Below are positions 16,101 through 56,862 of a DNA stretch of 64,000 nt, piece by piece. The notes beneath the pieces were generated by a model. The model was not told the DNA's origin, did no database searches, and saw only the letters and a program-made list of their open reading frames with translations. The DNA is from Ostreococcus lucimarinus (lineage: Eukaryota). Within the stretch, counting starts at the first letter, position 1, and the number at the start of each line of letters is the position of its first letter. The stretch lies in assembly GCA_000092065.1 (NCBI GenBank), contig CP000582.1; one strand, written 5' to 3'. A program made the position numbers and the translations under genes.

Positions 16101-19100
16101 CGTGTCGGCTTTCATATCTATGGGCTGGCTGGACTGGTTCTAAATGTAAAAGACCAAATGCTTCTCCTCTTCCATATCCGTCCGCTCCAGCATCTAAGGT
16201 TTTGCATCGGCCATCGTAAGCAATAGCACCGAGAGATGACAAAGTCACGAAGGTATCCGGAATCAGTATACATTGCGTGCCGCCAGACAACGTAGACGAA
16301 GCATGTGAGCCATCCATACTTGCACACGCTAAGTGCGCCGCTACCATTGACGAGGAGCATGCCGTATCTATCGCGATGCTCGGCCCATTCATTCCGAAGG
16401 TGAACGATGGTCTGCTAGCGAGGAACGAAATACCATTACCTGTACCTGCGTACGCATAGAACGCCCATTTTGTCGATCTCAGAATGAACTGGTAGTCATT
16501 CCACATTACGCCAATAAATACCCCCATATGATGATATATTTTCGTGTCAGATACACCATGCAAGCATTCGATGCAACAATTCAACAAATGACGTTGCTGC
16601 GGGTCCATGCATATCGTTTCTTGAGGTGTCAAGTGGAATATAGTGTTGTCAAAGTAAAAGATGTCGCGCAACAACACAGCAAATCGCGTAGATCCACTGA
16701 GAAGCTCAACGTCAAAACGAGTAGAAAGCCGTCTTTGCAATTCAGCACCAGTGACCAGTGACGTCCGCAAGCTTTGCAAATTCTTTATGTTGTTTGGATA
16801 TCGAAGTGAAATGTTTGATATTTTGTGAACATTCGATCCTGTTCCTTCGTGAGGATTCAATCCCAGTGATTTCGATTTCAAATCGAGTGAAATCACTGAA
16901 TCTGAAGTTGTACGCGCGTCCGTGAATGAGAAGATTGCTTTGCTTAGCTCATGCACTGTTGGATAATCGAACATTGATATAATTGGCAAGTCTATCTGGA
17001 ATTTGGCGTTTATAGACGATCGAAGGTCAGCAAGCGCCAAGCTGTCAAGTCCAAGCTGCATAATAGGCTGCGCATCATCAATATATGTATACGTTTCCAT
17101 GTCGATCGATGACATTATCGCGTGTCGTAGAAAATCGGCAATCGTATCAAAAGAATATGAACTAGTTTTTGTCTGAATTGAATCTGATACGATATTCGGT
17201 GTGGAAGGGCTAGTGAGCGCAGGCAGACGCGACGCTATGTATGTGGGTACCGTACAGGCATTCAACATAGAAAGGTTTAGCATAAACAAGCCGTGGGCGA
17301 CGTTTATAGATGCTAATAAGCGCTTCTCCAAATGTGCGTCCAGGCGGGCCATTCCAAAGACGGCGTCCGTCCATGCACCAAATTGGACACTGGAACTAGA
17401 GAATCCGCTGTTGAACATCAACTTCACACATTCATCTAACACGTTATTTGATATTGAATAATTCATTTGACCGAATGAATAAATAAAGCCAGTTATTGAC
17501 GAGCACGCGATTGATCGTTGAGCTTGTATATTTGCTAAGGCGTGGTCACGAACATATCCTAGTACTTTTGCAGAGGTTACAGTAGACATCGTTTCTGGAG
17601 TCTGTCGGAGCACAACAGCATCACACAATGACCCACTGGCGTACACAAATGTATTTATTCTATTGCGATCGATTGAAGTCAAGCCTTCTCGTGCAATTCC
17701 GCGATCACTCTTAAATGATCGAACTATGCTCTGTCCAAACCTCGAATGCACTCGGAGTTTTGCAATATGAGCGCTCCAACCACGACGACTCGAGAGGGAA
17801 AGATTGCTAGCGTCGGAGTGTAGAAGAAATAACGAAAGACACGACCCGATAGCGCCAGTCGCACCGGATATCGAAACGCCATTTCTTAAACTAGTCCCGT
17901 AATATGAATTATTTTCACAAATAAAAATATTTGGAATTCGACTAGGAATCACGTGTACCTCGTCATCATTTTGCAACTTGCCGATACCTGGGAGGTGTTT
18001 TGTGGCACTGATACCCATAGCTTCAATTTTTAGATACGTGGCGGCGATTTCACACGTCTTCATTTTCGAGTAAATGTTGGAATTTTTTGGTAACGGTGAG
18101 CTGTACATTGACCATGAATATGTGTGACGCGGTATGTGAGTGTCAATCCGATATGAACGCGCCGAAACATGAGATATGACTGCCAAAGCTGTTCGATTGA
18201 GACAAGATGAATCGGCTGACGCCCACGGAAAGTACTGAAAACTATGCCCATGTAAGTCACTAAGATGTTTGCTTGCGCGATAACGCACAAGGTTCCACAG
18301 AGTGTTTTTATGCACCTTGTGGATGGAAGCGCGGATACGAGAGCTTTTCATTCGAAACTTGATCACCGAGCCAATGCTAAAATTATCTGCATACATGGAG
18401 TAATCTGCTTCGGACAGTGGCTCTCGTGATATTTTAGTAGTCAATGGGATCTTTACGTACGTTGTCCTGTCTATGACATCTGTAAAGGCATTTGACAAAT
18501 ACAGCTCTCGCAAACCAGTAGGTATGTACGATGAAAATGACTTGGGTGAGTGCAGAGCGGCGCAGGATTGAAAGGTGTTATCAAGCGACGAGCTGTGGTA
18601 ATCGTGGAAGAAATCTATTTTGATTGAACTACGGCTAGTGCACACCATAGTATTATTATCGAATACCAGTGGGTTAGCATATTCGTGTGTTTGATATACT
18701 TTTGTACTTCGTGTACATTTCCAAAGGCATTTAAAAAACAAGATACTTTCGGAGTACATTTCCAGTGCGCTAGACGTCGTATCTATACGAATATCATTGA
18801 TTTGTGCCTTTCCGTTGGCCGGCAAAATGACCCGCGCAGTTGGGATAGTCACGTCACACATATTGCGAATTTTGGTTTCAACGAACATGCGAACTGCAGA
18901 TGAGCAGAGTAACAACATACTCGCAGCTGGTAAGATTGCTTTCCCGTGAACAGAGTGATCAAATAACCCGGTATTATTAGTGCTGATGATGTTACCTTGC
19001 ATGACAACATGTGTGCTCTTTGCAACGGTCAATGAATGAAGACGTTGAGGCAAAGTCGGAGTTATCCAAATACGATCTCTCTGCAGCAAACGCATGGACC

Positions 19101-22100
19101 ATCGGATCGGGAGATTCGTCGCGCGTTTTATCCGATTCTGCAATATGGCGTGCGCGTTTGTGCCTTGGAATGCAAACGCGCTGACAGATGCATGAGTTTC
19201 TGATGAAAAATGTGCGTTCAACAACGGGACGATTGCACGAGGTGAACGCATGGAGTTCTTATGTGCTTGGTTGAATGTCTCGGATATATGTGTGTTGATA
19301 CACCTCAACAATCGGATTGAGATGCACTTACTAGATGAGACACTCTCAGAAGCTTTCAAGATATTGATGGAACCTGATGCTGGTTCCGCATGCCCGCAGT
19401 GTGACTTATTCGCCTGTAAGGCGACAGTATATGAACTATATGAGTATGCACTCATAGTAGCACTCAACTCAATCGGATCACCTAGAATTGTACCAGTGCC
19501 GTGCAGTTGAATAGTTTCGACCGAAACGTCCCTGCGTTGTGTCGCTAATTTCATCACGGCTTCCTGTGCTAGCCCACTGGGAGCAGTGAGCGAACTAGAG
19601 CGACCATCTTGATTCGCTGCGCTACCGTGGAGGATTATCGAGTTTGATACCAACGTATGCCTCCACAATAGAATATGCATCATACCCGCTTCTGCCCGTA
19701 CGTATCCATCTGCAGACGCATCAAGGGTTTTACAATGGCCGTCTGCTGAAAGCATTTTGGACATCTCAAATATCAAGGAAGAACGTTCCAGTAGCGTGAG
19801 ATTTATCCCCCCTAGGCAACACCCACGCATGTGAGTGTCCAACGTTCGATGAAACATGGTGACACAAATCAAAGCTGACGAGCAAGCTGTATCGACACAT
19901 ACACTTCTACCACTTAGCGCAAAGGTGTATGAAATACGTCCACTTGCAACACTGGCGATAGTACCGGTACCAAGGAAATTACTTTCTGAGTACGCACACA
20001 GAGTTGCATACTCGGCGCTTGAAATTCCAACACCTACCCCCCAGCTGTTGTCCATGTCTTTCACGACTGATACACAATTATCCACCAACATCAGCACAAT
20101 GCGATGTTGTGGATCGATGTAAAGAGCTTCCTGTCGACCAACATTGAAATAACTACAATCGAATCGATCAGGAGATTCGATAGTGACTCCGCATCGTACT
20201 GACTTTCCTATTGTGTGGTCGACATCAGTAGACCATCTTGTTCCCATATGATTGTCAGAGTTTGGCAAGAGAGAGCTAAGAATAGGAATGCTGTGAATTG
20301 AATCGTCGTTGCTCGCGGCTTCAAGCATGAGATTCGATTGCAAACTCGGAACTGAATCCTGGTAAGACAACAATGTAGCGAGGTATGCTGAAATGTCTCG
20401 AACGGTTGGATAGTTGAATACCAACGTCACTGGCAAATCCGAATTGAGGGCGCTTGAGATTTGATCACGAATGTCCACGGACACTATAGAATCTATACCC
20501 ATTTCCACCAGCGATACGTCGTCTTGTACACGCATTCCCATTACGGATGAAACAATCGCACTCACACTTAGACGTATGTCCTCGAAACTTCTCATTGGCA
20601 TTTTCACTGGGATGTCTTTGCCAGCGTCGCGCTCAACAAAGCCCCTTTCATTTTTAGAAAGATTCGTGTGCTCATGGAGTTTTCGAGCACGTGGACGTCT
20701 TTGATGCGGTAGCTCCTTGAACTTGTTGACTAGAACGATCGATAGCCCTTTCGATGAGAGAATCTTATCCAGCATACAAAGTGCCGATTTTTCATCCACG
20801 CTACCAACGCCTAAATCGTGGAGTCTTTGCAATACTGTGGGCGTCGACATACCGTCAGTACAATCCCAAGCACCCCATTGTATACTTTTCCACACATTAC
20901 CACACTGTGTCTGGTTTTGTGCGAATGAATCAGTCATGGCATTAGCTGCAGCATAATTTGCTTGTCCGGTGGATTTTAGGACATGTGATGTCGATGAAAA
21001 GACCAACCATGCCCGTAAAGCAGTGAGACTGAAGGCGCATTGAAGTTTTTCAGCGGCTCGGTGCTTGGGCGCGCAGACAGTTCTAATCTTATTCGGATTT
21101 TGGTGTACACTCAAGCCATCATATAACAAACCCGAAGCATGTAGCACATACTCGCACGCAAGATTTGGTGCTGCAAAAGTTGCCGAAAAGTCAGCCCAAC
21201 TCGCGACATCAATTTTGTGCACAGATATCTCCATAAAGGGACATGAATGGTTGAGATCAAATCGTGCGCTCCGACCGCTTCTCGATGCACATATGAGCTC
21301 ACCCGTGCGTGGCTTGTTAGTGTATATGTGGCGAGCAATAATGGTGGAGAGTGCGCCTAGTCCTCCGCTCATCAAGATGCCGCCATCGAACTGCATCGTA
21401 TCAGTGGAGAATGTACTATCTAGTATTCTTGGGAGGTAACGCGAAGATATTGTCGCTTTTACGCGCTGCGCCTCAAGAAAGCGCACAGATACTACTTTGT
21501 GTGAAATTGTCGTTTGTTCCGTGCCCAAACTGTCGATGTATGAGCACTGCGGGATAGTATGGTCTCTACAACCCATATTTCTTGTAATGTCGTAAGACCC
21601 CATTGATTTGATGTAGTACGGAGTACTTATTTCTTCGCACGCAATCTTGCATACTGTCTCAACTGCAGAAGATATACACGGGGTATGTGTGGTACTTAGG
21701 CCCAATTCGGCAACCTGAACATGTGTCGCTACATTCTGTAAAGCACAAAAAGACGATGAAATCAGTTGCGTCGTGTTCACACCGCTTTCGAATTTGAGCG
21801 ATGCGCGCTGAATTGGATTGGTACAGAGTATAGTAGAGAAGTTTATAGCATCTTTTCTTCCCATGGTGTCCTTTCGATAAAGCGAGTTGGTATAGATAAC
21901 TTTTATTTTTGCTTGACGCTTAAGCTTAATATCTGCGTCGAACCTCGCTCGTCGAAAACTCGCGCATGAAAGGCTTACGGTGAAATTACGAGTCGCGTTC
22001 TGCATGCAATGGTCTGATTCACCGCAATTTTTCAATGAGATACGACAACTCAACATTGAATTGCCAGAACAGTTCGAAATTGTGGCCATTTTGACACCTA

Positions 22101-25100
22101 CTGGCAAAAGAAGCACGTTGGGTGTGTCCACGACGGACGTGCAAGCTCGTAGCTGTAAAGAGCAATCCATCACGTTCGGCTCGAAAGCGAACATTTGCTC
22201 AATGTGCATCCATCTAGGAATGCGGGCTGTTCGGCTATATACATATTTAGAAGCTGCGAAAGTGTTTTTGCTCTCTATCGAACAGCGCGTATGCGCTCGA
22301 TTAGGAACATCTGCGATGTGTGCACATGCATGCATGGTATGCTGAATGACTATTCGACTTTTGTAATCTTCAATCCGTAAATGAATTTTTCTGTGCCTTT
22401 GCTTACTTGATAGAGGAATGGGAGCACATGTTAGCTGATTTGCAGCCCCAGCAACACGACAAGTTGAAAAGAGACCAGCATGAGCGGAAAGAAATATCTC
22501 TAAAATCGCGGTGTTTGGCAAAATGCATGTGTCTTTGACAGTGTGATCCAGCAAGTAGTTCGAATGTAAATGTTTGAACTGTAGCTCAATTAATCCTTTT
22601 GCCGGAATATACTGTATTTGGGGGTGCGGAGTAAATATATCTACGTTCCATTGTACTTTCAAGTTCTTCAAGACAGACGTCACATTATGCGATTCAAATC
22701 CAAGTGTGAGTGCAATCATACAATTTGTCCCTTGGAACGCAAACGCACTCGTGGTGACAAATTTTGGACAATCTGCCAAAAACTCCATTTGGTGACACTG
22801 TCGGTTTATGACGATTGCTGCGTGAGTGCAAACTCGATCTTCTACCAATGGATTCATTACTCGAAGCGAGACATTTCCAGTGTTGGATGAAATCAAACTT
22901 TTTGCGACTTGAGATAGTGTCAACACCCCAGATGCGGGCTCGCCGTGCCCCACACGACATTTGACAGCTTCCAGTTGTACGGCATGAGAGTGTGACTCAA
23001 AGTGAACTAATCCACCTAAGTAGGCTCCGATTTCGATTGGATCGCCCAACGGTGTCCCCGTGCTGTGTAAGTACGAGCATTCTACATGCCCGGCGCGGGA
23101 TCCATGCAATAGTTCAACAAGCGCACGCTGCTGCGCTTGGCCATTTGGTGCCGTGAGCGCGGAAGAACGCCCGTCCTGATTGATAATTGAGTGCAAAATA
23201 CTACAGACATATCCAGAAGTTTTGGTCGGTAATTTCTGTTTAGCACCAGAGTGCAATAAACAAGCGTGCGAGGCTTCAGCGCGACTGTATCCATCAGCAC
23301 ATACATCAAGCGATTTACAACGCCCATCATCTGCGAGCATTCCAGTGACTGCAAATAAAGACATCGTTGATTGTAAAAGAATGACGTTCACACCGTAAAC
23401 AATTATGTGATTCCCTTCATCACGCAGATACCTACGCGCCACATCAACTGCAACGAGAGAGGACGAACACGCTGTATCTATCGCAATCGACACACCTCCC
23501 AGATTGTGATGAAATGAAACGCGTCCTGGTACAACTGAAAATGCAGCATCCGTGGCGAACCCCGTCTTTGAAATATCGAGGCCACAGTGATCCATGCTCG
23601 AAATTGCAACAAGTATACCTGAGAGGTTCGCATCATCGATCATATGAACGCACTTGAGAGTATCATTCAAAGCAAGGCGTTGCTGAACGTCTATTCGCCG
23701 GGATTCTGCTTGAGAAATCTGAAAGAGTTCGAAGTCAAAAAAGCTTGTTTGTGGAAATAAGAAAGATCCAAAGATCGACGATGTCTTCCATTTCGGACCA
23801 TCAACCAAAATGTCCCATTTAGCAAATGGCACGTGAGATATTAAGTCTGCCGCTTCATTTTGAACATCCGGATAAGATCCCGTAACATACGAAAGTATTA
23901 TCGTTTCTTTTGAGCTAATTTTCGATGTTTGAAGTGGCCCCATAGTGATCACGTTATCATGCATTTTGTCAAATATATAATGGGCGACATCGACATATGA
24001 TACGAAATCAAAAGCAAGAGTAAGAGGCAGTTTGATGTCGAATGATGCCGAAAGTATTTCGCTGAATTCGATCGCAGAAAATGAATCAAAATCCCATCGA
24101 ATTGATGCATCCATCACATCTTGACAATTCGTTACTGATTTTAAAATTTTGAGCACATCGGCTTCGATATGGTTTCTTGTCCGGAGAACCCTCGATGAAC
24201 TATTAATTTGATACGATGAGTTCTCTGCTTTTGAATATTTCCCTGGATTTGAAGTTAATTTCAAATTTCCTGAGCAGAAATAGACGCCGCACGTGGAGCT
24301 GTAGCCAATATTAAAGTGATTCATTCCTATATGACAGAGTAGTAACGTGCAATTTATGTCGATGTTTTGGACCAAAAGACGAACAGCATCAGTGGGGAGC
24401 AGCATACTGATGCCTGACTTGATGTAGCGACTTGAAACGACCTCATCAACCATCCCACCATTTGACCAAGCACCCCACTGGATGCTAATGATAGAAGAAC
24501 CAACATTTCTGCACATATTTGAAGACGAATCCATGAAAGCGTTTGCGGCTACGTAACCCAGCTGTCCTCGTGTTGCGAATAAGCAAGATATTGATGAACA
24601 GAGTGTTAGCCTTCGGAAATCCAAGCAGGCATATTTGTTATATAGTTCGCTCGTTATAGATATTTTGGGAGCCAAGACTTTTGAGCACGTGAAAAAATTT
24701 TGAAATTGTATTAATGCGTCGTGTAATACGCCTGCGCAGTGATACATGTGCAGATCGACGCAAGAGTTTGGCTCAATACCGTGTCGTGATACACGGATGA
24801 ATGCACTGTCCAAACTCCGATTTGTGTGGAGGAATCTGCCTGAGCGCCCGTGTAAGATCGCCATCACTTGAAACTTTGAGCAATACCATTGGAGGATATT
24901 CGACGCAATGTGACCAGTTCCACCTGTCAAGTACAGTGAGATTTGCTTTAATGGGCTGTCGAAGTCTCTTCGGATGAGTGATCCTGATACATGGTTTCGT
25001 ACTCCTTGTACGTTTTGTCGTGAAACTTCCGTGATACTCTTCAAGTAAGCATGTTTATTTTGAATAACCACAACAGAATTATTTACATTTGGTGATTCCC

Positions 25101-28100
25101 ACGGAACAATAACGTGTCTCACAGACGCTGAAGATGGATGTGAGACTGAATCAACAATTGATATCATACCTTCAGATAAAGCCACACGCATCATAGAACT
25201 CGCATCCAGCTGTTCCATTTCTCGAGTGGTGTGGACACTCACTTTCGTCGCTCGACGCAGAGCATGAGCTAATTGTAGGAAATCTGAAACACCCCTTACG
25301 TTTGTAAACGTACTGTGCTTTCTCAACTCGGATGCGATAATATTCGATCTCAAGCCATGCCCCAAGAGAAGCGGTTGAAACGCGATTATTGAGTATTTGA
25401 ATGCAGATGGTTTGGTATGGGACATTCCCGTGGGGTTTGAAAATTGATCCGTCCTCATCCGTCGAGATACAATATGGAACAAAATCGTACTGTACGCTTT
25501 ATTGGACGCAAAATGGTCACTTAATATATCGCTTCGGTCATTTAAGTTCAGTGATGGAAGTGTTGACACGATGGCTCTCGTACGAATCTCGGATTTTCTG
25601 TGAGTGTACGAAGTCACTCCGGACGGTAGGAAGAGATGGAGAGGCGGATCCTGTGATCTGATGGAGCCCACAAAGCCCAGTTGCAGACTACAATCTTCGT
25701 GTTTAGCGCGATTGTGTCCACAAAATACATCGGAGGTCGTCCTTCCTACCGATCCTACGCCTCCAAACGACTGATACAAGCTTGGGGCACCGTAGTCACT
25801 CAATCTCAGCATGCCAGAGATTTGCGCATAACACACGTGCAACCCTTTTGAAACCGTGTTGGATGTGGTAAAACTTGTACTCGTACCTGAGGAGAGGGTG
25901 CAGTATCCGCTTTCATCGAGTTTCAATGATAGATCTACATTGGGTTTGTCCAAGTAGAGTGACGTCGAAATAATTACGCTTTGCACAGCGTGACGTATTG
26001 GATGGTACAGCATGGTGTGCTGCTCAGGATGTCCGACCAAGAACATGACGCGATACAGAACTGTCGCTGGGCATATCGTTCTATTACGAACTCGGTGATG
26101 CTTGTATAAGACGCTATCAATTTTTAGGATAAAGGACTGCGAGGTCTTTCCGGTGGACATTGAGCAGGCCCATCTCAACGACGACGATAATTGCGATAAT
26201 TGACCATGTCTACCAGCGATCTGTAGAGTGGACCAGCGAACCGAATAGTGATGCGAGGCCAAAAGCCGTGATATTGTATGCGCATTTGTTCCTTGAAAAG
26301 CAAATGCACTCGTACCGAAATAACGTAACGATGAGTTCTCCACCAAAGATACATTCTCCCTCGGTAACGAAACCAAAGATCCACTGCTGTCAATATCACA
26401 CACGATATGCGTGTTCAATCGTCTTAGATGTAAAATTTGAGAGAATAAATGATTCGTTGACTCTTGAATTGTAAAGACAAGGTTGATCATACCTGAAGCT
26501 GCTTCAGCATGCCCCGCGATTGACTTGCTAGCATTAATATTCACGAGTTTTGCTGATTGAATTGCCTCAAGAATGGCATTTATTTCGATTGGGTCGCCGA
26601 GGGCAGTGCCGGTTCCATGCATAGAAATATTAAATGAGTTTGAACACTTGTGACAGCTTCGTAGTGCTTGACGCAATAGGCTGACTTGACTTGTACCATT
26701 CGGCGTCGTAAGCGCGCTCGATCGACCGTCTTGATTAATTTGCGTTGCGCAGACTTGCACTACTCGGGCCGGCGAGAAATCGCTTTTTGATAAATCTACC
26801 ACAGCCAGCAGGCAAGTATACTCAGATCGTACGTAGCCATCAGCAGAAATATCCAAAGTTTTACATCGACCTTCGAGCGACAACATACCGAGTCTGTAAA
26901 GCGCATCAGTCACATTTTCACATATGATATGATTCACTGCCGCAGGCAGGCCGAATGTACACTTTGTGAGGGCGAAGAAGGTCGAAACCAAGTGCAATGC
27001 CACGAGTGAAGACGAACAGGCGGTATCCACGGATACACACGGACCATGAATGTCGAAGAAGAATGCAATTCTGCCACTTGCTACACTATGGGCCTGACCC
27101 ATGACGGATTGATCATTCACAGAGAGCGATACATCGCCAAACTGTGAAATACCCAACGCCAAGCTAGTGTTTTTCGTCTTTTGGTACGATGAGGTCGACG
27201 ATAGCAGTTTCTGCGCATAAAACAGAAGATTCTGCTGCTGTGAGTCCATCGAAATGATTTCTTGCAGTGTTAGGCGAAAACATGATGAGTCGAAGCCACG
27301 AAGATCGTGATGATTACCAAAATTGTATGATAATCCGTCGTCGTGAAGTGTAGTGTTCAAATCTTTTGCAACATCAAATTTTGAAACCTGATGACACGAT
27401 ATAGCATCCGACGTTTGCAATATGTTCCCGCTTGTGGCAACTATACCAATCTCAATTGGCGAAATACTATGCGAAATACTTCGAACATCTTGATTTGGCG
27501 AAAATTGTACTTTCTCAGACGATATATCATCCGCTGAGTTATGCAGTGCTGAATTACTCTTAAGACGAAACACATCTACTGGTTTTCGACTCGGAGTAAC
27601 AGACTTACTACCGTCGTGTGCAATTATAAGCAAATCCAATGTGCGAAACCAGTCGTCGTCGGTCCATTCCGTTCTCCTGAAACACTCGTGCTGGTTTAGT
27701 AGACATTGAATCTCGCCCACAAACCCAGAGCGCAGCAGTGCAAGTTCACCATTATTGGTCACCGCTCTCATCACACACAGTGGGTGTTGGGTTCTTGTCG
27801 TATGCCATCGTAACTCGTGCGCCATCGATGTCGTATTATAGAAAATCTCACTGCCGTAAATTGTTGGAGATCGTGCGTTGTATGAATCGTACGTAGGATT
27901 ATCATAGCTCATTATCTGACAGCCAAATTTTGAGAAAAGACTTTTCAGCAAATATTGATATCTTTGTTTGCTCAAGTTTTCCACGACGAGTAGGCGAAGA
28001 CTCGAAGCATCAAAGCTAGATGAGAACTCGCTGCGCACCATGGACGCACCGATAGATTCCGGCGCTATAAGAATAGTTACGCGCTCTCTAGCGATTGAAC

Positions 28101-31100
28101 GATGAATTGTCCCAGAATCGGATTCATTTATGACAATTGAGCCTTTTGCATTTAAGACCGCAGTCGCCGTTGTGATGTTCAACAATCCCGCTTTATTTGC
28201 AAAGTGTAACGAAATATCAGTACAGTTAATGCTCAAACTCAGCTGCAAGTTTCTGATAAATGAATAGTGCATGTGAGTGCTGAAAAGTGTCAGTTTTGTA
28301 TGACCTGTAGCGTGCATGTGCACTACAAAGGGTGAAGTATCGACAGGCATAATACATGGATAATCTAATCCTTTCCCGGGGACTTTTTGAGAATATTGTA
28401 GTCTAATATTCGAGATGTTCTTTCCTAGTGCAGTGGGAGGCCTTGTGAAAACATACTTTCTCAAGAGCGTAGTAGAACCAAATATTACATGCGGTGAAAA
28501 CGACAAAACTTCTGCATCAGGAATGCTATCTGAGTCTCTGTGAACCAGCAGTACACCATCCAGCGAAGCAACGACGTAGTGGAGAAGAAGTCGAAGGTAA
28601 AAGTTTGACGTCACTGCATACACGCGCAGGCGAGAGTGTCTGACTTCCGGAATTAGGTTGAATATGTATTCGCGGTACGTGGTCATATGTTGGTCAATAT
28701 CCAAGTATATGCATACATTGCTCGAAGTAACATATAAAGGTTGGGAAATATAGATCGTCTTCACATTTGTGTTCGTCTGTGCGCTTTCATTCCGTGATTT
28801 TTGGATTGATTGCGACAGTCTAGCTCGCATTAGCCGAGAAGTGTGGGAATGTTGGAGAGAAGTACCTCTTTCCATACGTATGCTGCTTTTTAGAATGAGG
28901 CTCTTCAACAGAGTTTTCCCACTATGTAACTGCTCTTCACACGAAGACCGGCAGGTATGTTCAAGACAGGCAATCAAATTGTCGACTGTGCCTCTGCAAA
29001 ATTTGCTTTCGTCATACATCAGGGTGCCGCTAATGTCGGCATGAGAATCTTGAAGTCCCAACCAGAGCGAAAAAACGGCTTGTTGAAAATGCTCTACTCT
29101 GGACTCCATACATTTTGATCGACGCAGATTGCTGACAAAGCTGAAGCATGTCTCAAACATAGGATTGTTAGCATGAAAGTCACATCCATGTCGAGTGCAA
29201 AGCAAATGGATGATATCGTTGATGGGGACTAGAGGGCATTCACGAGCAGCGTTTATCATGTGGTGCACATTCGCGACAATATGTGAGAAATTGATGTTCA
29301 TGTCGACCACACATCGGCCTGGTACAACGGCAGCGTAACACCCTATGGTTGATTGTTGTGAAAGTGAACTTGCGCATCGTAAATCGAATGAGTTTCCGAG
29401 AGTGATTCTTGCCAGACGTGATGCCTGAACCTGGCGTTCAGTTATGGTGGCGATCACAATTAGCCAGCAAGAAAGCAAAATGGTGCAAGTAGTAGTACCT
29501 AAGATTCTTGCGGTAGACTTCAATAAACGCGTTGCGCTTGCACTGAGTTTGAAAGGAACTCCAGCGCCTCGCAAGATGTCTGGTGAATTTAGGTCAGTCA
29601 TGAAATCATGTCGCAGCTTTGAGGCATTGAAACTACTTCGCTTATTTTCTGTGAGAACGTTCTCCCAGTGTATCAACGCTTTATTTCTCAGTTGTGCACG
29701 ACGATCTTTTTGGTCTATCAGGTGATGAAACCAGGAGGTGTACGAATCGAACGTCCCAGGTCGATCGCATGTAAGTGTGTTTGATCTACACGCATGGGCG
29801 ATGATAGCTAAAGAGAGCGCGTCACCAGCAATGTGGTGCAAAACTACCAGCAATTTTGACTCGCCCAGGCGATACAAACGAAGTGGTGCGTCGTTGAAAA
29901 TATCGAATGGATATGACTTCGCTTCAGCTATGACGATCTCTGAACGTCGGTGAACCGAACCACAATTCTTTCTATCACACCTTAAGATTGGTATGGAAGA
30001 AATTGTCTCTCCTGATTTTATGGATACACTATCATTGGGGGAAAAACGCATTCGTAGAATTGGATGGTTTAGTAACATACAGTTGAAGACCTCAATTATA
30101 TCCTTCTCCATAGAGATGTCCACGATCATTGACATATTGTAAGCACAACTTGACGGATAGAGCTTGAAGTGCAGTACAAATATTTTTTGTTCTTGGCTTG
30201 ATACCAGGACGCTGTCGTCTTTTACGTTTGCATGAGCTTCACTTTGGGAGACTGCAGTCGCGACCTGATTCATTTCGAGTCGTTTTATCAATTCCTCCAT
30301 TGATAAACTTTCAGTCAACAAGCTGGCTGGTATGCGACATCCGAGTTGCTGTTGAAGCCTAGCAAAAAATTCAGTTATCCCTAAGGAATCCATCCCACTC
30401 TCTATGAGAGTTTTGTCTTTCATAAATGAGTGGAAACTAACATCGCGGTAGCATGCGGAGACGATTTCGTACAACGATAGTTGGGCACCGTTGTGATTGA
30501 ACTCAGATGGCACATCCGGTTTCTTATGGTTTGTTTTTCTTTTGCGCAAGTGTGACCTTGATACTGACTGGTGCTCTAAATAGTGGAACTTGGAACTAGA
30601 TGAATTTCGCGCTACCAGCACATCCCAATGGCCGACTTCATTGCGATACCTCTCCATGTAGAAAAGTTCAATGTGTAGGGTAATGCATTTCATCTCACGT
30701 GAACGATGATGTATAAGTGTCTTTGAGTCTTCAAATAGCTTGCTCGGTAGAGCGAGGCCGGATTTTGACAATGTGCGCCCATACAAACTCTGTGATGAAG
30801 GACGGAAACACAATCGCCGTGCTGATTGAGATTGTCTTGTGAAATGTGATGCACATCGAGTCAAACGTGCTTCGAATGCGAGCTGTCCGCAGGCTTCTGC
30901 ACTGTTGAAAGTTCCATCGTGCGTACTTAGAGAGACAGTCCAGACATCTCGTGCGCATGTTTTCGTGCGATGAATACACTTTGTGATCAGGAAACGATCG
31001 TCATTGCCCAGCATATTAAGGGTCTGAAGATAACTCTCGATGTGTGCGCCAATTCCATGCATGTGAGCGTGGATGCACAAAATTATCTTGCAAGTCCCTT

Positions 31101-34100
31101 TCAAGTGTAGAAAATGGCCACGCATGTTTATCATCGGACTTCCACTGTCTTCAGCTTGATTAAATTCTAGTCTATGCCATAAAAATTCCATATCAGTGGT
31201 TCCCAAATGTTTACACCATTCATCTGAAGCAGCCACGATGTGTGCGTTTGTTCCAGAGTATCCAAACGAGCTTATCGATTTTAAGGCTGGGTTTAACGCG
31301 CATCGGCCTCGATTGAATCTCAATACATTCACATACTCCTTTACACTATCAAGAACAATTGGATTCATGTTGCGCAAAGACAATAGAAATCTACTTAAGC
31401 GCATATCATAAAGTGTCATCACTAACCCATGGATTCCTGAAGACGCTTCGCTGTGCCCATGTAGCGTCTTACTTGCCTGGAAGACGACGGGAGAGCGACC
31501 CACACAGTATACTCGTTGAATTGCAGCTATCTCGATGGGATCACCGAGCTGCGTACCTGTGCCATGTAACTCAGACTCATCTACGCCATTTCCTTCGACA
31601 TTAATGCCTGAGTGCGATGCACAGGATTGAATTAGCTCAAATTGAGCGTTGCCGTTCGGTGCCACCAAGGAACTAGTCCTTCCATCTTGGTTTATTTTGC
31701 TTGCTTTGAAGTATCCTACGTTTTCACTGATATCGTTCGATGCAGCGTGATCCACGCGACGTTTTGCAAGAAGCAGGCCTGCATAATTTTCGGCCCGACC
31801 ATATCCGTCGGCTTCGACGTCCATCGCTTTACATCTGCCATCTGATGATAGCATTCCTGCTGCATTGCAGACTATTGAAGTTCTTGGATCAAATATTAAG
31901 TTGACCCCGAAGGCCAGTTGTTCACAATCTCGATAATGATCATCACAAACACATGAAAAGTGCACTGCAACTAACGATGAAGAACACGCGGTATCAATAG
32001 ATATAGATTGTCCAGTAAAGTTGAAAGTGAAAGAAATCCTGCCGGCAGCAACGTTTGACACATTCGTTGCACTTTCATATCCGTTTGCAAGTGTAGACTT
32101 ATCACGCAAGATTCTTGCGTAGTCCGACGACGTGATGCCGACAAATACTGACTTTGCACATCCATTGACGCAATACTTTTTGTCGAGCAACGATGCGGCA
32201 GTGCCAAGCAGAACGCGCTGCTGTGGATCGCAGAGACGAGCTTCCATGCGTGACATATCAAAGGTATTGGCATCAAAATGATATACTTGAGCAATGAATC
32301 CACCAAAACTTGGTGGAAGTGCACCGTCTAGGGTATCAAATTTGAATAAATCTATGATCCAACGCTTCTCCAAACCTTGAATCGCATCAAACAACGGAAT
32401 CTTGTGAGTTACTGTCGACTGGCTGTGAAAAGTCTTAGCGTAGACTCGCACGTCAATACTATGACGTTTATGTTGGGTAGTCAAAGAGCAGGAAGACCTT
32501 TGTATGGAAATTTGATTTTGATGCGATTCGGACAACATACATTGGTTTTGTTGCGACAAAAAACGAATTAAAGATCGGAGTGTCGGATGCTCAAATGCTA
32601 CTAACTTTGGCACATCAATATGAAGCTTCGATGAAAGTGCATCAGCAAGTTCCAAAGCAAAAGTTGAGTCCACGCCGTTGGTCATGACGCTCTCATCCAA
32701 AGAAAATGGTCCATTTCTACATCCCCGTAAATCCGTTAGAACGCGCTGCACCACTGAAGCTACATGTGATTGTACGACATCCACGTGCATAGCTTCCAAA
32801 TAGTTGTCGTCACTCACAATCTGAGTTGATGGGTGTTTTACCCTATCAAGGAGATCGTCAAGTAGATCCCATTGCTGTAGGCTATGTTCTGTTTGGTTCA
32901 GCAGTACTCTAAATTGTGAGTCATATTTCTGCATGTCCAACTTGACTACCAAAACACCAGGAAGCGCACGAGTCAAATGACATTTTGATATTATACTGCA
33001 AAGCTTATTGGGGCAAATCGAGGTCAGGCCCAAGATGGATGAGTCCCATGTTGCATTTAACGCCATACCAACACTCGCAAATGGCCCCAAGCGGATTGAG
33101 ATAATTTCGCTTCCAAAAGAATGAAACCAAAGTGATAGCTCATCAATGTATGCATTTGACGCTGCATACGATGCCGCTCTCCCAAGACCGAAAACAGCGC
33201 TGATTGACGACAGAAATATGTCTATTTGTCGTGAGTGGGACGGAAAAAGCCAAGGCGTATTGTCTTTTTTAGCTTGTACTGAAGTTGCGACTTTTGGTAC
33301 GAAGACTGCCATCATCTGTGCAGGTGTCAGGTGTTTCACTGGAGTCATCTGAAAGACTCCTGCGGAATGTATAACTGACAGTTTTTTATTTTGATCCTTG
33401 CAGAACCGGGATTTAATGGCTGCTAACTCATCTAAATTGCACACACAAGCTCTCGATATTGTCAGATAGTCATCTTCCGTGGAAAATGTTGGATCCACGT
33501 GAAGCACGCGACTTCGCCCTGTGCGGCCAACAATACAAACATTACAATGCGAATGGCGTTTCAAATTATTTATTAAGTGAGCGGTTATGCCATGAGTTCC
33601 ACCATATGTTAAAACATTATGCGAGCAAGTCCATGCGAACTCACGCTGTCGTCCTTCGCGGAGGGTTGAACGTAAACTTACTTGCGCTAATCGCTGTGTG
33701 AAAATTTTACCAGCCTCAACTCTCATCTTGCACGAACTACAACTCAAAAACGTAAACTTTTCAAATACTGGTTTCGGAGCTAAAGCAACTTGCACATGTG
33801 GATACTCCAAATGCAATGCCTGAATTAAGCTCTCCATGGTCCCGAACGTGCAGGCGGCTTCACTTGCAGGACGTGGCTGCGTGGCCAGGTTGAAACAGGT
33901 TGATGAGCATGATCTTGAGACAATGCTTATCAACGGTAAAAACGTGAACATTGATGCGTAAATTGATGCAAATGTGTACGATGAGTCTTCTACTCTTTGA
34001 TAGGGCACTATGTCACACAAGTCCAGGTTAAAGGCACGCTTTCCAATTCGCGAAGCTTTGAAACTACCAAAATTAATACAATCTGTGCCGTCAATTCGTT

Positions 34101-37100
34101 GATGTTTTGCGGCTCCATAAACCCAATTGGCCACGTACTGATGCGTCGGTAATTTAGCACGTCTTCGTATTTGTGATGCACTTTCTTCACACTCTATCAA
34201 GTTATTGGAAGATTGAATTCGAGATTTAGTACGTGTAATTTTCCTATTTGAAACTGTACGATGCGCGCACGTGGTATTCAACAATCTTGAGAACTGAACC
34301 ATGGCGCAAGATATACGCAAAAAATGATGCATACACGACTTTAACAGTTGCTCTTTGACTCCTGTATCGCTAAAAAGTGTGTGTTCCATTGCACGACATG
34401 TAGAAATTGAATTCCGGAAGAACTGACATACGCTGAGGAAGCGCCGGTCGCGTACCTGTGGAGTAACGGTCACGCAGCCTTTACCAGTGTTAACACCATT
34501 CGACCCTACAACTTTAAACACAGAAGTTCTTTCGCAGAGATGTACGACCAAATTATCCTTTACTGCATTATGAGTTGTCAGCACTACTTGTGAAAGCATC
34601 GTCAATCGTTCGTTTGTTGTTATACCAACTACGGAATGTACAGCAAAAAGTAGATCTGACATTCGTGCGATATCATTATCCATATTATTTCTTTGCTTGA
34701 ATGTTAGCCATTGTGACGAATCTAGGTAATAGGCTTTACACTCCACTGTCATGTAATCGTGCAGTAAGTACTTTTCGTCGAGAAGTAGTGGGTTGCCGTC
34801 CATAGGGCGCTTATACAGAGCGCTGTAAACGGTCGCCGATAATATCGCGTGAGCGTTTGTACCTTGAAATGCAAACGAGCTCGTTCCCGTCTTCGCATTT
34901 GCTTTATGCACATGCTGGCACGAAGCAGAAGCAGATCGCGGCACAGCAACGTTTGGCTCTTGAGAGGGATTTATTGACATTGCGTGCCACGCATGTACGT
35001 TGAGTAAGCGCATGTGCATTATGCCAGTGTGTCTTTGCATTTCTACGGCACGTGATGCACTTATGAGCCCCGCCACACCGGCAGCACATTCAGCGTGCCC
35101 CATGTTCGTTTTGATTGCATGCAATCGTAAAGTTTCTGCCTGACCCAAAACAGACATCGCGCCTCCTACTTCTATGGGGTCACCAAGTGGCGTCCCAGTT
35201 CCATGCATTTCAAGGGCCCGCACTTCTAATGGCCGAGTCGAAGCGTTTGCCAGGGCTGATTTGATGACTCTGGTCTGCGATGGTCCATTTGGCGCCGTCA
35301 ACGAGCTCGTTCGACCGTCTTGATTTACTGCGGTCCCACACAGCCACACGCTCTCGCTATTGACATTCGCGGTTGGACTCAGTAATAATGTATCACAGCT
35401 TTCGGCTCGCACGTAACCATCCGCGGCCGCATCGAGCGTCTTGCAGCGGCCATCAGGCGCTAGCATACCAGCGCGTAGAAACATGGCCGTCGTAGTCTCG
35501 GTGAGGATGAGGTTCACGCCACCCGTTACAGTTGAGTCGCACTCACTCTGAAATACAGATGCCACACCGAGATGGACTGCCACAAGGGACGAGGAGCAGG
35601 CAGTGTCGATACTCATCGCCGGTCCTGTGAGATCGAATGTGAAGCATATCCGTCCAGAAGCGACACTGGAAACGCTCGAAGCGGGCACATCTCTGAAATT
35701 GAGTGGGAATATTAGTCGAAGTGCCCCGTACTCATCGGCACTGACACCAATGAAACAGCCTGTTTGACCATCGATTACACCTTGGTCGTCGTAGATGCAG
35801 CCGAAAGTGCACTTGAGTAACGTCCGTTGTCTTGGATCCATTTGCGCAGTTGTGCGTTCATTGAGGTCGAAAATGTGTGCGTCAAAATTGTTTACATTAT
35901 TCATATGAAATGCAAATGGTGGGTTGCCTGATTCAAAGAAAGAATCGAACCGGCTGTCGACGAGCGTCACTTCGTCGTCGTAGGTTGCAGTAGACATATT
36001 GCCGTAGAAAGACGCAAGTGTGATACTTCTATTGCCCAGATTCTCCGCAGAACTGCCTTCCAATACCCGCAAGCTTTGTCGTGATTGAATTGATGATGAA
36101 CTTGAACTTTGTAAACGGTCTGCAAGATGACGAGCTAGTGATTTTACCGTCGGGTAATCAAAACCGAGTGTATGTGGCAGATTGAGAGACGTCTCTACAG
36201 CCAAGCTCATCGCTAACTGCGACATACCGATAGAATCCAGACCTAACGATGTAAGTGGTGTATTTATTGACTTCTCATCTTGATTGATTCCAGTAATAGA
36301 AGACAAATTTCTGAAAATGAGTCCCTCTAGAGATATAAGATCATCGTGAGTTTCATCTTCGGCCCCAGCTTTGGTGGAATAAATGGTAGCGTCATCTTTC
36401 GATGATAATTCGTGTGAATTAAACCCTGAACCCAGATGCGCTTGATTATGTAGTTTTTGCCCTATCACAGAATAACATGGAGCAGAGAAAATATCGCTCG
36501 AAAGTACGTACAGATTTTTCAAGATATCCAAAGCAAGGTGTGGATTTATTGAGGGCATAAAAGCAGTGTTTGCGGAAATTCTACGCGTATCAATAGCCAT
36601 TCCAACTGCACTCCACGCTCCCCATCGAGTACTCACAATGTTCATGCCTGAAGCCTTCTTATGTGCCGACATCATATCAAGTGTTGCATTCGCAGAGGAA
36701 TAGTTGGCTTGTCCTATAGAACCGAAGACGGCGAGGGAAGAAAATACTATTGAAACAAGCATTGCATGGTGTAAGTGCGTTTTAGAACAAGAGAAAGATC
36801 CCGTCTTTGGAGCAAATGTAGACCTAATGGAATGAGGATTTTGTGAAGCATGCAAAGCGTCTTTCGTTACGCCACTCATGTGGACAATTCCAAAGGTGTT
36901 TGTGTCTCCTTCGTATGGTAATACGGTGGTAGAGGCGCACGAGTCATCTTGCCTAAGTTTTAAACTGATTCGCCAATGGTTAAAGAGTTTTGGTTTTGCG
37001 GACTTTCCACTTCTACATGATACACAAATGCCTAGTACATTGTGGTTGTGTGCTAACCAACCAACGTTCATCACCCCAATGCCACCTGTGCCACCTGTAA

Positions 37101-52257: not shown

Positions 52258-52513
52258 GACCGCCTGTTGATAATCGTAGGAAATTTTTTACACAAGTGAC
52301 GCGATATGGTGCGATGCGATCTGGCGCGCATAGTACGTTTCTGTACTTGTGTAGCATAACGATGTGACAACTGTGCTACTTGATAGGAAATACTTCGGAA
52401 GTACGTAAGCGGGCGAAACTTTTATAGTTCGTGTGTGCCTTAGGAAGCATATTGTCTGCAAGGAAATGATTTAATGTGCTCGTTTTACACTATCTATACC
52501 AAGTAAATGCTAT

Positions 52514-55258: not shown

Positions 55259-55513
55259 GTTGCGCTATTACCTGATGCAGGTAGTAGTCGAACGCTGTGG
55301 ACGTTTTTTGCGTGATAATCAGTACACAGAGCAGCCACTATCTTGAGTTGCACGATCCACGTGTTCCAAAGACTTTCGAGAGAGAGTCTGAGCGAACAGG
55401 TTATACCGGATGCTTCGTAGATTGAGGCACCAAATGTTGGATTCTAGCTCAAGCGATACTCTATGGTAGACCGACAAAAAGAGGCCGACAAAAGTGATAA
55501 GATGCAATCAGCC

Positions 55514-56016: not shown

Positions 56017-56862
56017 ATGCGTCCTTGCTCCTCCCAGCCACTTTCGAAACCGCCGTTTGGGAAGGACGGCTTTTCGAAATATTGGACAAAACATCGACCT
56101 TTGAAACTTCCAAAACGTGCTCGGCATGCATGTAGAGTGCTCAGCCCACTGGAGCGCTTAGAAGAACTCGGAACTCGACGTTTTGGTGTCATCTTTGAAC
56201 TTGAAGGTATTATAGTGCCCAGTTGTGCAAAAGCAGACCGAGAAGAGTGGCAACAGATAGCGCGTGAGGAAGGCCTCGAACAACCTGCTGAGTATCAACT
56301 CCGGGCGGCTCTTCGGAAGAAGACAGATCATGCGGTCTCTCGCGTATTCAACTGGGCATCCGAGCCACAGCAAGTGCGGTTCTTGACTCAGCGCAAAAGC
56401 GCACTTTTCTGCAAAAGAACGGAAACCACTGATCACAGAGCCCATGAGCATGTTCTAGCATTTTTGCGGCTACTCGATGGCTTCGACGTGCCCTGTGCTA
56501 TTTATTCTTCACAACTCTCGAGCGAAGAGCTAACAGTTTTGTTGCGTCGTTTGCAACTGACAGGGTACTTCAAGACGGAATCAGTGATAGGTCGTGACGA
56601 CGTACAAAGTGGCTTACCAGACACTGAATACTATTTAGTTGCAGCGCGTGCGCTTTTTCGACCGATCTCCAAATGTATTGTCATAAGTGACCACCACCTC
56701 GCAATCGAAGCTACGACTGAAATAGGAATGAAGTGTGTAATTGTCAATGGCGTCGACTCTACCTGGGAGTTGAGAGGTGCAAACATGGTTGTGCCGTCGT
56801 TAGAGTGGATATCGTTTAGGAACTTACAAAATATTTTTAGCTTAGATGTATACGAAAGTTAG
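56017..56862 (+). CDS. HAD-superfamily hydrolase-like protein (CbbY/beta-phosphoglucomutase-like); motif I is degenerate (FELEG rather than FDxDG)
   Basis: 281-aa ORF. GVIFELEGIIV at the motif I position and KCIVISDHHLAIEATTEIGMKCVIV resembling motif IV. Possible N-terminal presequence. Confidence 0.5.
   Translation: MRPCSSQPLSKPPFGKDGFSKYWTKHRPLKLPKRARHACRVLSPLERLEELGTRRFGVIFELEGIIVPSCAKADREEWQQIAREEGLEQPAEYQLRAALRKKTDHAVSRVFNWASEPQQVRFLTQRKSALFCKRTETTDHRAHEHVLAFLRLLDGFDVPCAIYSSQLSSEELTVLLRRLQLTGYFKTESVIGRDDVQSGLPDTEYYLVAARALFRPISKCIVISDHHLAIEATTEIGMKCVIVNGVDSTWELRGANMVVPSLEWISFRNLQNIFSLDVYES

Follow-up and report, generated by a model that had tools for sequence, protein, structure and literature searches.

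A central condensation domain and a probable eroded adenylation-type core in the AT-less polyketide synthase OluPKS3 of Ostreococcus lucimarinus

Introduction

In bacterial trans-AT hybrids, the junction that leads from PKS to NRPS and back to PKS has the order ACP / C-A-T / KS, as for example in bacillaene PksJ/PksN.

Among algal proteins, OluPKS3 of Ostreococcus lucimarinus was assigned to the trans-AT class by Shelest, Heimerl, Fichtner and Sasso (BMC Genomics 2015, PMC4661987), who reported the domain string ...KS-KR-ACP-KS-ACP-C-KS-KR-ACP... with “a central C domain (HHxxxD) but no A domain predicted”. The C domain in the middle of this protein has thus been known since 2015, while about 500 aa downstream of it were left without annotation; KS7 is given as DTACSSS/HGTGT in Table S3 of that paper. 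The same authors and their supplement describe several related assembly lines. MicPKS2 of Micromonas sp. RCC299 reads C?-A?-PCP2-KS-KR-ACP2-...-KS-P-loop NTPase, OtaPKS1 of Ostreococcus tauri contains …KR-ACP-KS-ACP-KS-DH-KR-ACP…, and OtaPKS4, also of O. tauri, resembles OluPKS3 modules 1-5 only. In the KS trees, MicPKS2-KS4 pairs with OluPKS3-KS10, and duplicated modules pair together. Many PKSs of the Mamiellales begin with an AMP-dependent ligase, and two proteins of Emiliania huxleyi, EhuPKS1 and EhuPKS2, carry C domains without A domains (PMC4661987).

Here we analyse the stretch between ACP6 and KS7 of OluPKS3. The gene is the published one, and the published string agrees with our map module for module; motif coordinates, the missing carrier and a tentative eroded core of the adenylate-forming (ANL) type are added.

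Results

The window, i.e. the whole stretch of 64,000 nucleotides of contig CP000582.1 that was analysed, contains a giant stop-free frame on its minus strand (Table 1). According to a Pfam domain map of all modules the frame encodes 14 KS and zero AT domains, and a Pfam profile search gave no match to Acyl_transf_1 in any module. With multiple KS-...-ACP modules and no integrated acyltransferase, the predicted protein classifies as an AT-less modular type I PKS. We identify it as OluPKS3 of O. lucimarinus CCE9901 (JGI protein 30000), because the protein of the neighbouring gene is an exact match to XP_001416379.1, and because of the domain order and the odd motifs DCASASG/SGLGE of the terminal KS. 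Modules 7-14 look intact, and recently duplicated modules are found among them.

Table 1. Coordinates of the OluPKS3 frame and of the features from KS6 to KS7
Feature	Window position	Strand	Protein position and remarks
Giant stop-free frame, OluPKS3	1-52287	(-)	17,429 codons; continues past the left window end
KS6	31228..32400	(-)	aa ~6630-7020; Pfam ketoacyl-synt N-terminal E 8e-38, C-terminal E 7e-22
KS6-ACP6 linker	30463..31227	(-)	aa 7021-7275, 255 aa; without DH or KR
ACP6	30268..30462	(-)	aa 7276-7340; Pfam PP-binding E 1.4e-8
NRPS-type condensation (C) domain	28954..30207	(-)	aa 7361-7778, 418 aa; Pfam PF00668
Predicted catalytic C3 motif HHIAGDA	29818..29838	(-)	aa 7484-7490; aligned with solved C domains
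NVHHMINAAR	29242..29271	(-)	aa 7673-7682; helix just N-terminal to core motif C6
Polar low-complexity linker, C domain to orphan region	28774..28953	(-)	aa 7779-7838, 60 aa
Orphan region	27556..28773	(-)	aa 7839-8244, 406 aa; probable degenerate ANL N-terminal core
Linker to KS7	27433..27555	(-)	aa 8245-8285, 41 aa
KS7	26218..27432	(-)	aa ~8286-8690; Pfam matches

The two KS domains that flank the stretch have intact Cys-His-His triads, formed by DTACSS (Cys at aa 6765), HGTGT and GHSE in KS6 and by DTACSS (Cys at aa 8424), HGTGT and GHAE in KS7. The linker between KS6 and ACP6 returned zero Pfam families at E≤10 and just one weak, irrelevant match in NCBIfam; its final 70 aa show a weak likeness to the post-KS region of module 10 (BLASTP E 0.018). 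In ACP6, the phosphopantetheine-attachment residue is Ser 7301 in GMDSLG (window 30379-30396), and the domain is matched with E 5.8e-7 by an HMM made from the other ACPs of the protein. The gap from ACP6 to KS7 amounts to about 945 aa (2.8 kb) and contains no KS, KR, ER or ACP signature. A preliminary description of positions 27700-31200, which correspond to aa 7030-8196 of the minus-strand frame, had already recognized this architecture: one open frame across the region, in which our check found no stops, about 260 aa without DH or KR between the KS and ACP of module 6, and a long signature-free segment with no ACP directly before KS7. An ordinary DH+KR pair, which would have spoken against that description, was searched for with Pfam in aa 7020-8290, and none was found at E≤10.

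Between the C domain and KS7, no PP-binding domain was found by Pfam at E≤10. When the HMM of the protein's own ACPs was run with filters off (--max), ACP6 was the only match between KS6 and KS7. The linker preceding KS7 is too short for a C-terminal subdomain of an A domain or for a carrier domain. As judged from the sequence, a complete NRPS elongation module (C-A-T) with a cis acceptor carrier is not present between ACP6 and KS7.

The C domain begins 20 aa downstream of ACP6, its putative donor carrier. It matches PF00668 with 85 bits (cut-off 30.6, E 6e-24) over profile positions 7-429 of 456 and an NRPS/PKS subfamily of NCBIfam with E 1.2e-11. Its relatives in the PDB are exclusively NRPS C domains, and strings corresponding to the core motifs C1-C7 are all present in the expected order. 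In the alignment, HHIAGDA lies opposite HHIVSDG of Txo1 and HHIAADE of a PCP-C didomain; compared to HHxxxDG, both histidines and the aspartate are kept, while the last glycine is exchanged for alanine. We conclude that this is a well-formed NRPS condensation domain with an intact catalytic motif, and the full-length coverage of the profile suggests the two-lobed chloramphenicol-acetyltransferase-like fold.

Could the stretch nevertheless be a single new catalytic domain of about 870 aa with its active site at NVHHMINAAR? The preliminary description had treated it as one unidentified domain and had pointed to this string, which does exist, and half of the stretch is indeed without family assignment. 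On the other hand, Pfam splits the stretch, since its first 418 aa are the Condensation domain with an HHxxxD motif of its own, 189 residues upstream of NVHHMINAAR. The latter lies opposite a non-conserved helix in solved C domains (QVRERVLAAQ in Txo1), and we therefore read it as a chance HH pair and not as an active site; the predicted catalytic motif, HHIAGDA, carries the aspartate that NVHHMINAAR lacks. The single-domain explanation has next to no probability left and is ruled out by the Pfam Condensation match together with the PDB alignment. The guess of an ester- or amide-forming, condensation-type domain was correct as far as the first half is concerned, although it had been drawn from the wrong motif. 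The wax-synthase profile WES_acyltransf gave no match at E≤10, and Condensation alone was returned for aa 7340-7800.

Downstream of the C domain, the polar linker belongs neither to the Pfam envelope of that domain nor to the ANL alignment of the orphan region. This region has no significant match in Pfam, NCBIfam, the PDB or 1.84e9 representative proteins (exhaustive HMMER), and AMP-binding (PF00501) is absent at E≤10 when Pfam is searched with the whole region or with six fragments of it. The lone match among 18,950 NCBIfam models is the acyl-CoA ligase FadD3, which is colinear with an E of 0.081; its 11.5 bits fall far below the cut-off of 657. Scores of hmmsearch --max and local hhalign against ANL enzymes lie inside the range of shuffles, and single-sequence AlphaFold gave no usable fold (pLDDT 32).

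In semi-global alignment, the mean scores of the orphan region were compared with those of shuffles for three separate sets of ANL templates. The resulting z was 3.0 (4/1500) for NRPS A cores, 4.0 (0/1500) for acyl-CoA synthetases and, for cores of fatty-acyl-AMP ligases (FAAL), 2.9 (8/1500) in pairwise mode and 4.4 (2/3000) with a profile; for an NRPS-A profile it was just 1.7. Control templates of C, KS and RPE65 gave z near 0, and 37 further 501-aa windows taken from OluPKS3 all fell well short of the ANL score of the orphan region. These values bear on the idea that the 406 aa are not derived from an ANL enzyme at all, being instead a domain or spacer peculiar to this lineage, which might serve for dimerisation or for the docking of trans-acting enzymes such as the trans-AT. 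AT-less PKSs need docking sites for trans enzymes, and the idea is in line with the database searches, with their one insignificant NCBIfam match, and with the shuffle-level scores of the local profile methods. However, the semi-global likeness, weak but reproducible from end to end, is specific to ANL in all three sets, with three negative families and the 37 internal windows as controls, and a length of about 400 aa and a place directly after the C domain suit an A core. Moreover, an A domain is predicted at the matching place in the colinear Micromonas orthologue. We consider a non-ANL origin unlikely.

In ANL enzymes, the expected motifs are the A3 P-loop (T/S)SG(S/T)TGxPKG, the A5 glutamate and the A7 aspartate. 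Motif-like strings in the orphan region are FVVHMHATGHTK (A3), PTYDSYN (A5), GFVGEI (A6) and WFRTLDL (A7). The best ANL alignment places A3 on HATGHTKLTL and A5 on PTYDSYN without the glutamate, and A7 falls on FRTLD in 14/20 and 19/20 templates. The A7 aspartate in FRTLD is the sole catalytic residue left; the P-loop and the A5 glutamate are gone. At the hinge (aa 8244) the alignment stops, and the C-terminal subdomain with the A10 lysine is missing because just 41 aa are left before KS7. The orphan region is therefore probably what erosion has left of the N-terminal core of an ANL (A-type) enzyme, a stump predicted to be unable to adenylate because the P-loop, the A5 glutamate and the C-terminal subdomain with A10 are missing. 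With the C domain published and the remaining 406 aa read in this way, the notion of something new, also raised in the preliminary description, is unsupported.

The higher score of the FAAL-type profile compared to the NRPS-A profile, as well as the acyl-CoA ligase match in NCBIfam, would fit a fusion scar, in which an upstream PKS ending in ACP-C, where C served for release or transfer, was joined to a formerly separate downstream PKS starting with a FAAL loading domain that later became redundant and decayed. The AMP-dependent ligases at the start of many Mamiellales PKSs, the resemblance of OtaPKS4 to modules 1-5 only and the long polar linker between C domain and stump point the same way. 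However, NRPS A and FAAL templates are equal in pairwise mode, and the FAAL profile drew on a larger and more varied set of sequences. In addition, C and A move together as one NRPS unit in MicPKS2, whose beginning reads C?-A?-PCP2, and OtaPKS1 spans the junction with KS-ACP-KS. A fusion scar is thus quite improbable.

Over the 406 codons of the orphan region, the other five frames contain 16-27 stops each, compared to 0 in the coding frame. This lack of stops is not due to chance; it shows only selection for read-through to modules 7-14 and not a function of the region itself. A metagenome contig has 8 non-synonymous differences to OluPKS3, of which 2 lie in the stump and 0 in the C domain, tiny numbers in each case.

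Discussion

We hypothesize that the 2.8 kb from ACP6 to KS7 are what is left of an NRPS elongation module (C-A-PCP) in an AT-less PKS, with a dead A domain and a lost PCP, and give this reading about an even chance of being right. With A inactive and no cis acceptor carrier, the module would no longer insert an amino acid, and the beta-ketoacyl chain from the minimal KS6-ACP6 module would pass straight from ACP6 to KS7. Together, C domain and A stump would be mere passengers, an in-frame spacer kept open solely since modules 7-14 need translation. The C domain, far less eroded than the stump, may have lost its job later or may keep a residual role. MicPKS2, OluPKS3 and OtaPKS1 may then form a decay series; no C domain is predicted at the junction in OtaPKS1, and transfer from ACP to KS should therefore work without the insert. 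Against the relic reading stand the failure of the ANL assignment in every standard test, the intact motif and much better preservation of the C domain, which are unexpected for a long-dead relic, and the linker between C domain and stump, which at 60 aa exceeds the usual packed C-A linker.

Could the C domain still be at work, coupling the chain on ACP6 to a nucleophile that arrives in trans, with the dead A core as a structural platform or as a docking site for the trans partner? Either a free amine or alcohol might serve as this nucleophile, or a stand-alone A enzyme might charge a discrete carrier protein with an aminoacyl group. Enacyloxin and fumonisin biosynthesis are established examples of C domains whose nucleophiles are soluble or bound to a trans carrier. 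HHIAGDA and the C1-C7 strings are preserved, the donor ACP6 is close by, and the contrast between a readily detected C domain and a stump below detection suggests a stronger constraint on C; A-less C domains also recur in the algal AT-less EhuPKS1 and EhuPKS2. On the other hand, a cis acceptor carrier is absent, and neither an A-T nor a carrier gene occurs in the window. With a free nucleophile, the chain would come off ahead of the intact-looking modules 7-14; in the orthologue of O. tauri a C domain is not predicted at the junction, and the C motif of Micromonas deviates. We regard a working C domain as less probable than the relic. Its more specific form is doubtful: here the C domain would act mid-line on the beta-ketoacyl chain of ACP6 and an amine or alcohol supplied in trans, and the dead A core would be a pseudo-enzyme serving as scaffold or docking site. 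If true, a eukaryotic AT-less PKS would contain a peptide module of a 'trans-A/T' kind, and O. lucimarinus would make a nitrogen- or ester-branched polyketide that is absent from O. tauri.

For the favoured explanation, a decaying C-A-PCP module, the related assembly lines provide the frame of comparison. In the published domain strings, MicPKS2 and OluPKS3 are colinear from the C domain onward, up to the KS-P-loop NTPase at their ends, and the orphan region occupies the place of A?-PCP2; from these strings we infer that the C-A units of Micromonas and O. lucimarinus are orthologous. In MicPKS2 an A domain is still predicted, two PCPs are kept and the polypeptide begins at the C domain, whereas in OluPKS3 the A domain is undetectable, no PCP is left and six upstream modules are fused to the line. 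The C motif, on the other hand, is canonical in OluPKS3 and deviates in MicPKS2 (HHIVCE). OtaPKS1 is an orthologous line that shares the minimal KS-ACP module ahead of the junction and the KS-P-loop NTPase at the end, but its domain string leads from ACP to the next KS without the C domain seen in OluPKS3.

EhuPKS1 and EhuPKS2 share with OluPKS3 one HHxxxD-bearing C domain in an algal AT-less PKS for which no A domain is predicted. In the listed E. huxleyi proteins it lies at the C-terminal end, and is therefore a plausible release or hand-over domain, whereas in OluPKS3 it lies mid-line. Unlike the bacterial trans-AT junctions, the A core of OluPKS3 has only the A7 aspartate, no C-terminal subdomain and no T domain; therefore the standard mechanism should not be able to run in cis. 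The order of donor ACP, C domain, adenylation-type core and KS in an AT-less line is nevertheless the same as in those bacterial junctions.

The giant reading frame

A frame without stops on the minus strand extends over 17,429 codons and continues past the left end of the window. Its KS active sites comprise 13 of the DTACSS type and one last, aberrant KS, and no acyltransferase was matched in any of its modules. By its domain order this frame is OluPKS3, the giant AT-less PKS of Shelest et al. 2015 (PMC4661987), because the published string, ACP-(KS-DH-KR-ACP)x3-(KS-KR-ACP)x2-KS-ACP-C-KS-KR-ACP-...-KS-P-loop NTPase, agrees with the domain map obtained here, as do the duplicated modules 1-3/5 and 11-13 and the terminal KS with DCASASG and SGLGE.

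Two pairs of tandem module copies are nearly identical (99.92% over 5.07 kb and 99.9% over 4.98 kb), and at the protein level KS11-13 are 100% identical and KS2 equals KS3. These copies agree with the module duplications reported for OluPKS3 and also carry a risk of assembly collapse or expansion. ACP7 is divergent, with WDFDSF replacing GxDS; it escapes the Pfam PP-binding profile and is recognisable by eye against the other ACPs of OluPKS3, and an ACP also stands at this place in the published architecture. The N-terminal stretch has no Pfam or NCBIfam match and no signal resembling the adenylate-forming (ANL) superfamily (z -0.05), and a weak PP-binding match follows it. The first ATG of the frame lies at window position 52257.

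Coordinates of features in the window (aa, residues of the giant frame)
Feature	aa	Window	Strand	Remark
Giant frame		1-52287	-	OluPKS3
N-terminal stretch	1-555	50623-52287	-
PP-binding match	535-577			weak
First tandem module pair		41649-46716 and 45258-50325
Segment of the preliminary description	7030-8196	27700-31200
ACP6 motif GMDS	Ser 7301
C domain	7361-7778			Pfam Condensation
HHIAGDA	7484-7490	29818-29838	-	aligns with HHIVSDG of Txo1
NVHHMINAAR	7673-7682		-	aligns with QVRERVLAAQ of Txo1
Orphan region	7839-8244			406 aa
Match of P0121	7869-7963	about 28399-28683
ACP7	about 9370-9440	about 24080-24290	-	WDFDSF
Second tandem module pair		3584-8561 and 7285-12263
RPE65-GST fusion gene		52517-55264	-
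HAD hydrolase gene		56017-56862	+
Glucokinase ORFs		about 56886-57200 and 57859-58044	-	transferred from L006 gene calls
Transposase ORF		60105-62738	+	878 aa

The condensation domain behind ACP6

The preliminary description had proposed a single unidentified domain of about 870 aa between ACP6 and KS7. The domain found there measures 418 aa and is a Condensation (C) domain in Pfam (score 85 bits, cut-off 30.6; E 6e-24; profile positions 7-429 of 456 covered), with an NCBIfam match to an NRPS/PKS subfamily. Its relatives in the PDB are NRPS C domains only (Txo1/Txo2, PCP-C didomains, tyrocidine, surfactin and AmbB). Strings resembling the core motifs C1-C7 follow each other in the expected order and include the catalytic motif HHIAGDA. 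BLASTP found no paralogue of the domain within the rest of OluPKS3. The suspicion of a condensation-type fold was correct, but the motif behind it was the wrong one: NVHHMINAAR is present, but it aligns with a non-conserved helix immediately before C6, which leaves it no active-site role.

The surroundings of the C domain were as described. The roughly 255 aa between KS6 and ACP6 gave no DH or KR match at E<=10, and the stretch of about 945 aa from ACP6 to KS7 holds no KS, KR, ER or ACP signature. An ACP directly before KS7 is likewise missing, as an unfiltered HMM built from the other ACPs of OluPKS3 finds only ACP6 between KS6 and KS7. The original observation is real but was mis-described, and its interpretation is partly right. 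The domain map shows an apparently intact C domain directly behind its predicted donor ACP and lacking an acceptor carrier domain in cis.

C-like domains also end two bacterial PKS proteins in the searched collection, P0142 (aa 3168-3659; named as a Legionella MAG) and P0151 (aa 2467-2951). They carry PHIIADG and PHIIAEG in place of HHxxxDG, and neither protein has an A domain.

The orphan region before KS7

A polar linker of 60 aa separates the C domain from the orphan region. Pfam returned nothing relevant for this region, whether it was searched whole or as six fragments, and no PDB entry matched at E<=10. The sole NCBIfam match was to an acyl-CoA ligase (E 0.081), with colinear positions. 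A homologue search with aa 7340-8290 gave zero results, its word prefilter being too coarse for so divergent a sequence, and an exhaustive HMMER search among 1.84 billion representative proteins matched only a fragment of the region itself and the artefact P0121. When compared with the rest of OluPKS3 by BLASTP, neither the orphan region nor the KS6-ACP6 linker nor the N-terminus showed an internal paralogue. Single-sequence AlphaFold2 modelling of the orphan region reached a pLDDT of 32.5, which is too low for a fold assignment.

P0121, a database protein of 96 aa with 62% identity, was rejected as a homologue of the orphan region. All of its differences are substitutions expected of C-to-T conversion (T>I, P>L, H>Y, S>F, A>V and R>C); its source is evidently an O. 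lucimarinus assembly made from bisulfite-converted reads.

By eye, the orphan region presents a colinear series of degenerate motifs of an NRPS adenylation (A) domain. Local profile tests against A and fatty-acyl-AMP ligase (FAAL) cores (hmmsearch --max, hhalign -loc) gave scores within the range of shuffled sequences, and pairwise BLASTP with a single A domain yielded nothing above noise. We also used semi-global pairwise alignment, in which the template has to align over its full length while the query ends are free, and judged significance against shuffles. The resulting signal was reproducible across ANL template sets: 20 NRPS A cores gave z 3.0 (4 of 1500 shuffles reaching the real score), 20 FAAL cores z 2.9 (8 of 1500) and 8 unrelated acyl-CoA synthetases z 4.0 (0 of 1500), while control templates (C domain, KS and RPE65) stayed near z 0. 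Of 37 further 501-aa windows taken from OluPKS3, none scored above -87, compared to -34.8 for the orphan region. A FAAL profile reached z 4.4 (a score attained by 2 of 3000 shuffles of the full kind and by 0 of 1000 that kept local composition) and an NRPS-A profile only z 1.7, the two profiles being of unequal quality.

The ANL alignment covers the entire core and ends at the hinge. KS7 begins 41 aa later, too close for a carrier domain or a C-terminal subdomain (A8-A10) to fit in between. Only the A7 Asp (FRTLD) survives, with the P-loop, the A5 Glu and the A6 glycine motif all lost. An eroded ANL core is the probable, though not proven, identity of the orphan region, and the evidence supports a truncated A core that is predicted to be catalytically dead. 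This stump contains no stops, compared to 16-27 in the other frames; because modules 7-14 need translating, its open frame is no evidence for a working stump.

Natural variation and neighbouring genes

In Mamiellales, these giant PKS genes lie on the big outlier chromosome, within its low-GC outlier region, and their structural variability and rapid structural change have been stressed (2026 preprint, 10.1101/2025.04.21.649811). The locus is abundant in the metagenome population, with 151 collection blocks carrying it. A metagenome scan yielded only a contig with 99.93% identity (L001). Over 17.5 kb (window 17418-34958) it shows 13 single-base differences, 8 non-synonymous and 5 synonymous, a ratio that suggests that constraint across the whole PKS is fairly relaxed. 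The stump holds two of the 8 non-synonymous sites and the C domain holds none, numbers too few for a test.

A 360 kb metagenome contig (L006, Ga0494219_00130), compared over window 1-51393, carries a PKS gene call of 16,671 aa that begins at the equivalent of about window 51393. Its colinear end would lie at about window 1378, though the window frame stays open to base 1; therefore module copy number differs between the assemblies, or repeats were collapsed.

Beside the PKS lies a fusion gene that joins a carotenoid-cleavage dioxygenase (RPE65) with a C-terminal GST_N domain. Its sequence is identical to XP_001416379.1 of O. lucimarinus CCE9901, annotated as 'plastidic fusion protein', and the fusion is retained in Mamiellophyceae-like sequences with identities as low as about 42%. 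Two short Pfam Glucokinase ORFs, about 660 bp apart, are probably exons of one spliced gene beside a HAD hydrolase gene. A Tc5/pogo-type DDE transposase ORF (HTH_Tnp_Tc5 and DDE_1) is present in the metagenome contigs L006, L007, L009 and L010 and absent from L008 and L011, which points to an insertion that is polymorphic in the natural population.

Consequences and comparison with related synthases

How the junction is read decides the predicted product of OluPKS3. We infer that the module after ACP6 would no longer be able to insert an amino acid in cis, and because of this the chain would most simply be handed from ACP6 to KS7, as must happen in O. tauri. A module that is a dead relic would make the product polyketide throughout; with a working C domain, an amide or ester would be present at the module-6 position. 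The C domain is far better conserved than the stump; it may still work on a nucleophile that is provided in trans, or it may have been orphaned more recently. Activity in trans seems to us the less likely reading, even with this better preservation and the retained catalytic motif in its favour, and we prefer direct transfer from ACP6 to KS7.

The published string of MicPKS2 from Micromonas (JGI 107347) is C?-A?-PCP2-KS-KR-ACP2-KS-DH-KR-ACP-...-KS-P-loop NTPase (PMC4661987 supplement). By the published strings, MicPKS2 and OluPKS3 are colinear from the C domain onward, and the place of the orphan region is taken in MicPKS2 by a predicted A domain together with two PCPs. MicPKS2-KS4 has been paired with OluPKS3-KS10, and the duplicated modules are paired too (PMC4661987). 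A fusion scar, consisting of a terminal C domain and a dead FAAL loader, would fit the better FAAL score, but is weakened both by this C-A-PCP unit in Micromonas and by the unequal quality of the profiles behind that score. The internal KS identity matrix of the giant frame gives no hint of a two-part origin. In OtaPKS1 of O. tauri (Ot02g01210; ...KR-ACP-KS-ACP-KS-DH-KR-ACP...), no C domain is predicted at the equivalent junction (PMC4661987).

Taken from the published strings, the three synthases suggest a decay series from C-A-PCP2 in Micromonas, through C and an A stump in O. lucimarinus, to nothing in O. tauri, in which the carrier and A domains appear to have been lost first and the C domain last. 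The core of the finding, an orphan C domain in OluPKS3, is already published (PMC4661987), and this is no new kind of system; our analysis locates the motifs exactly, proves the absence of a carrier domain and, tentatively, adds the eroded adenylation core. Together, the three orthologues offer a compact natural example of the loss of a peptide module from a hybrid assembly line.
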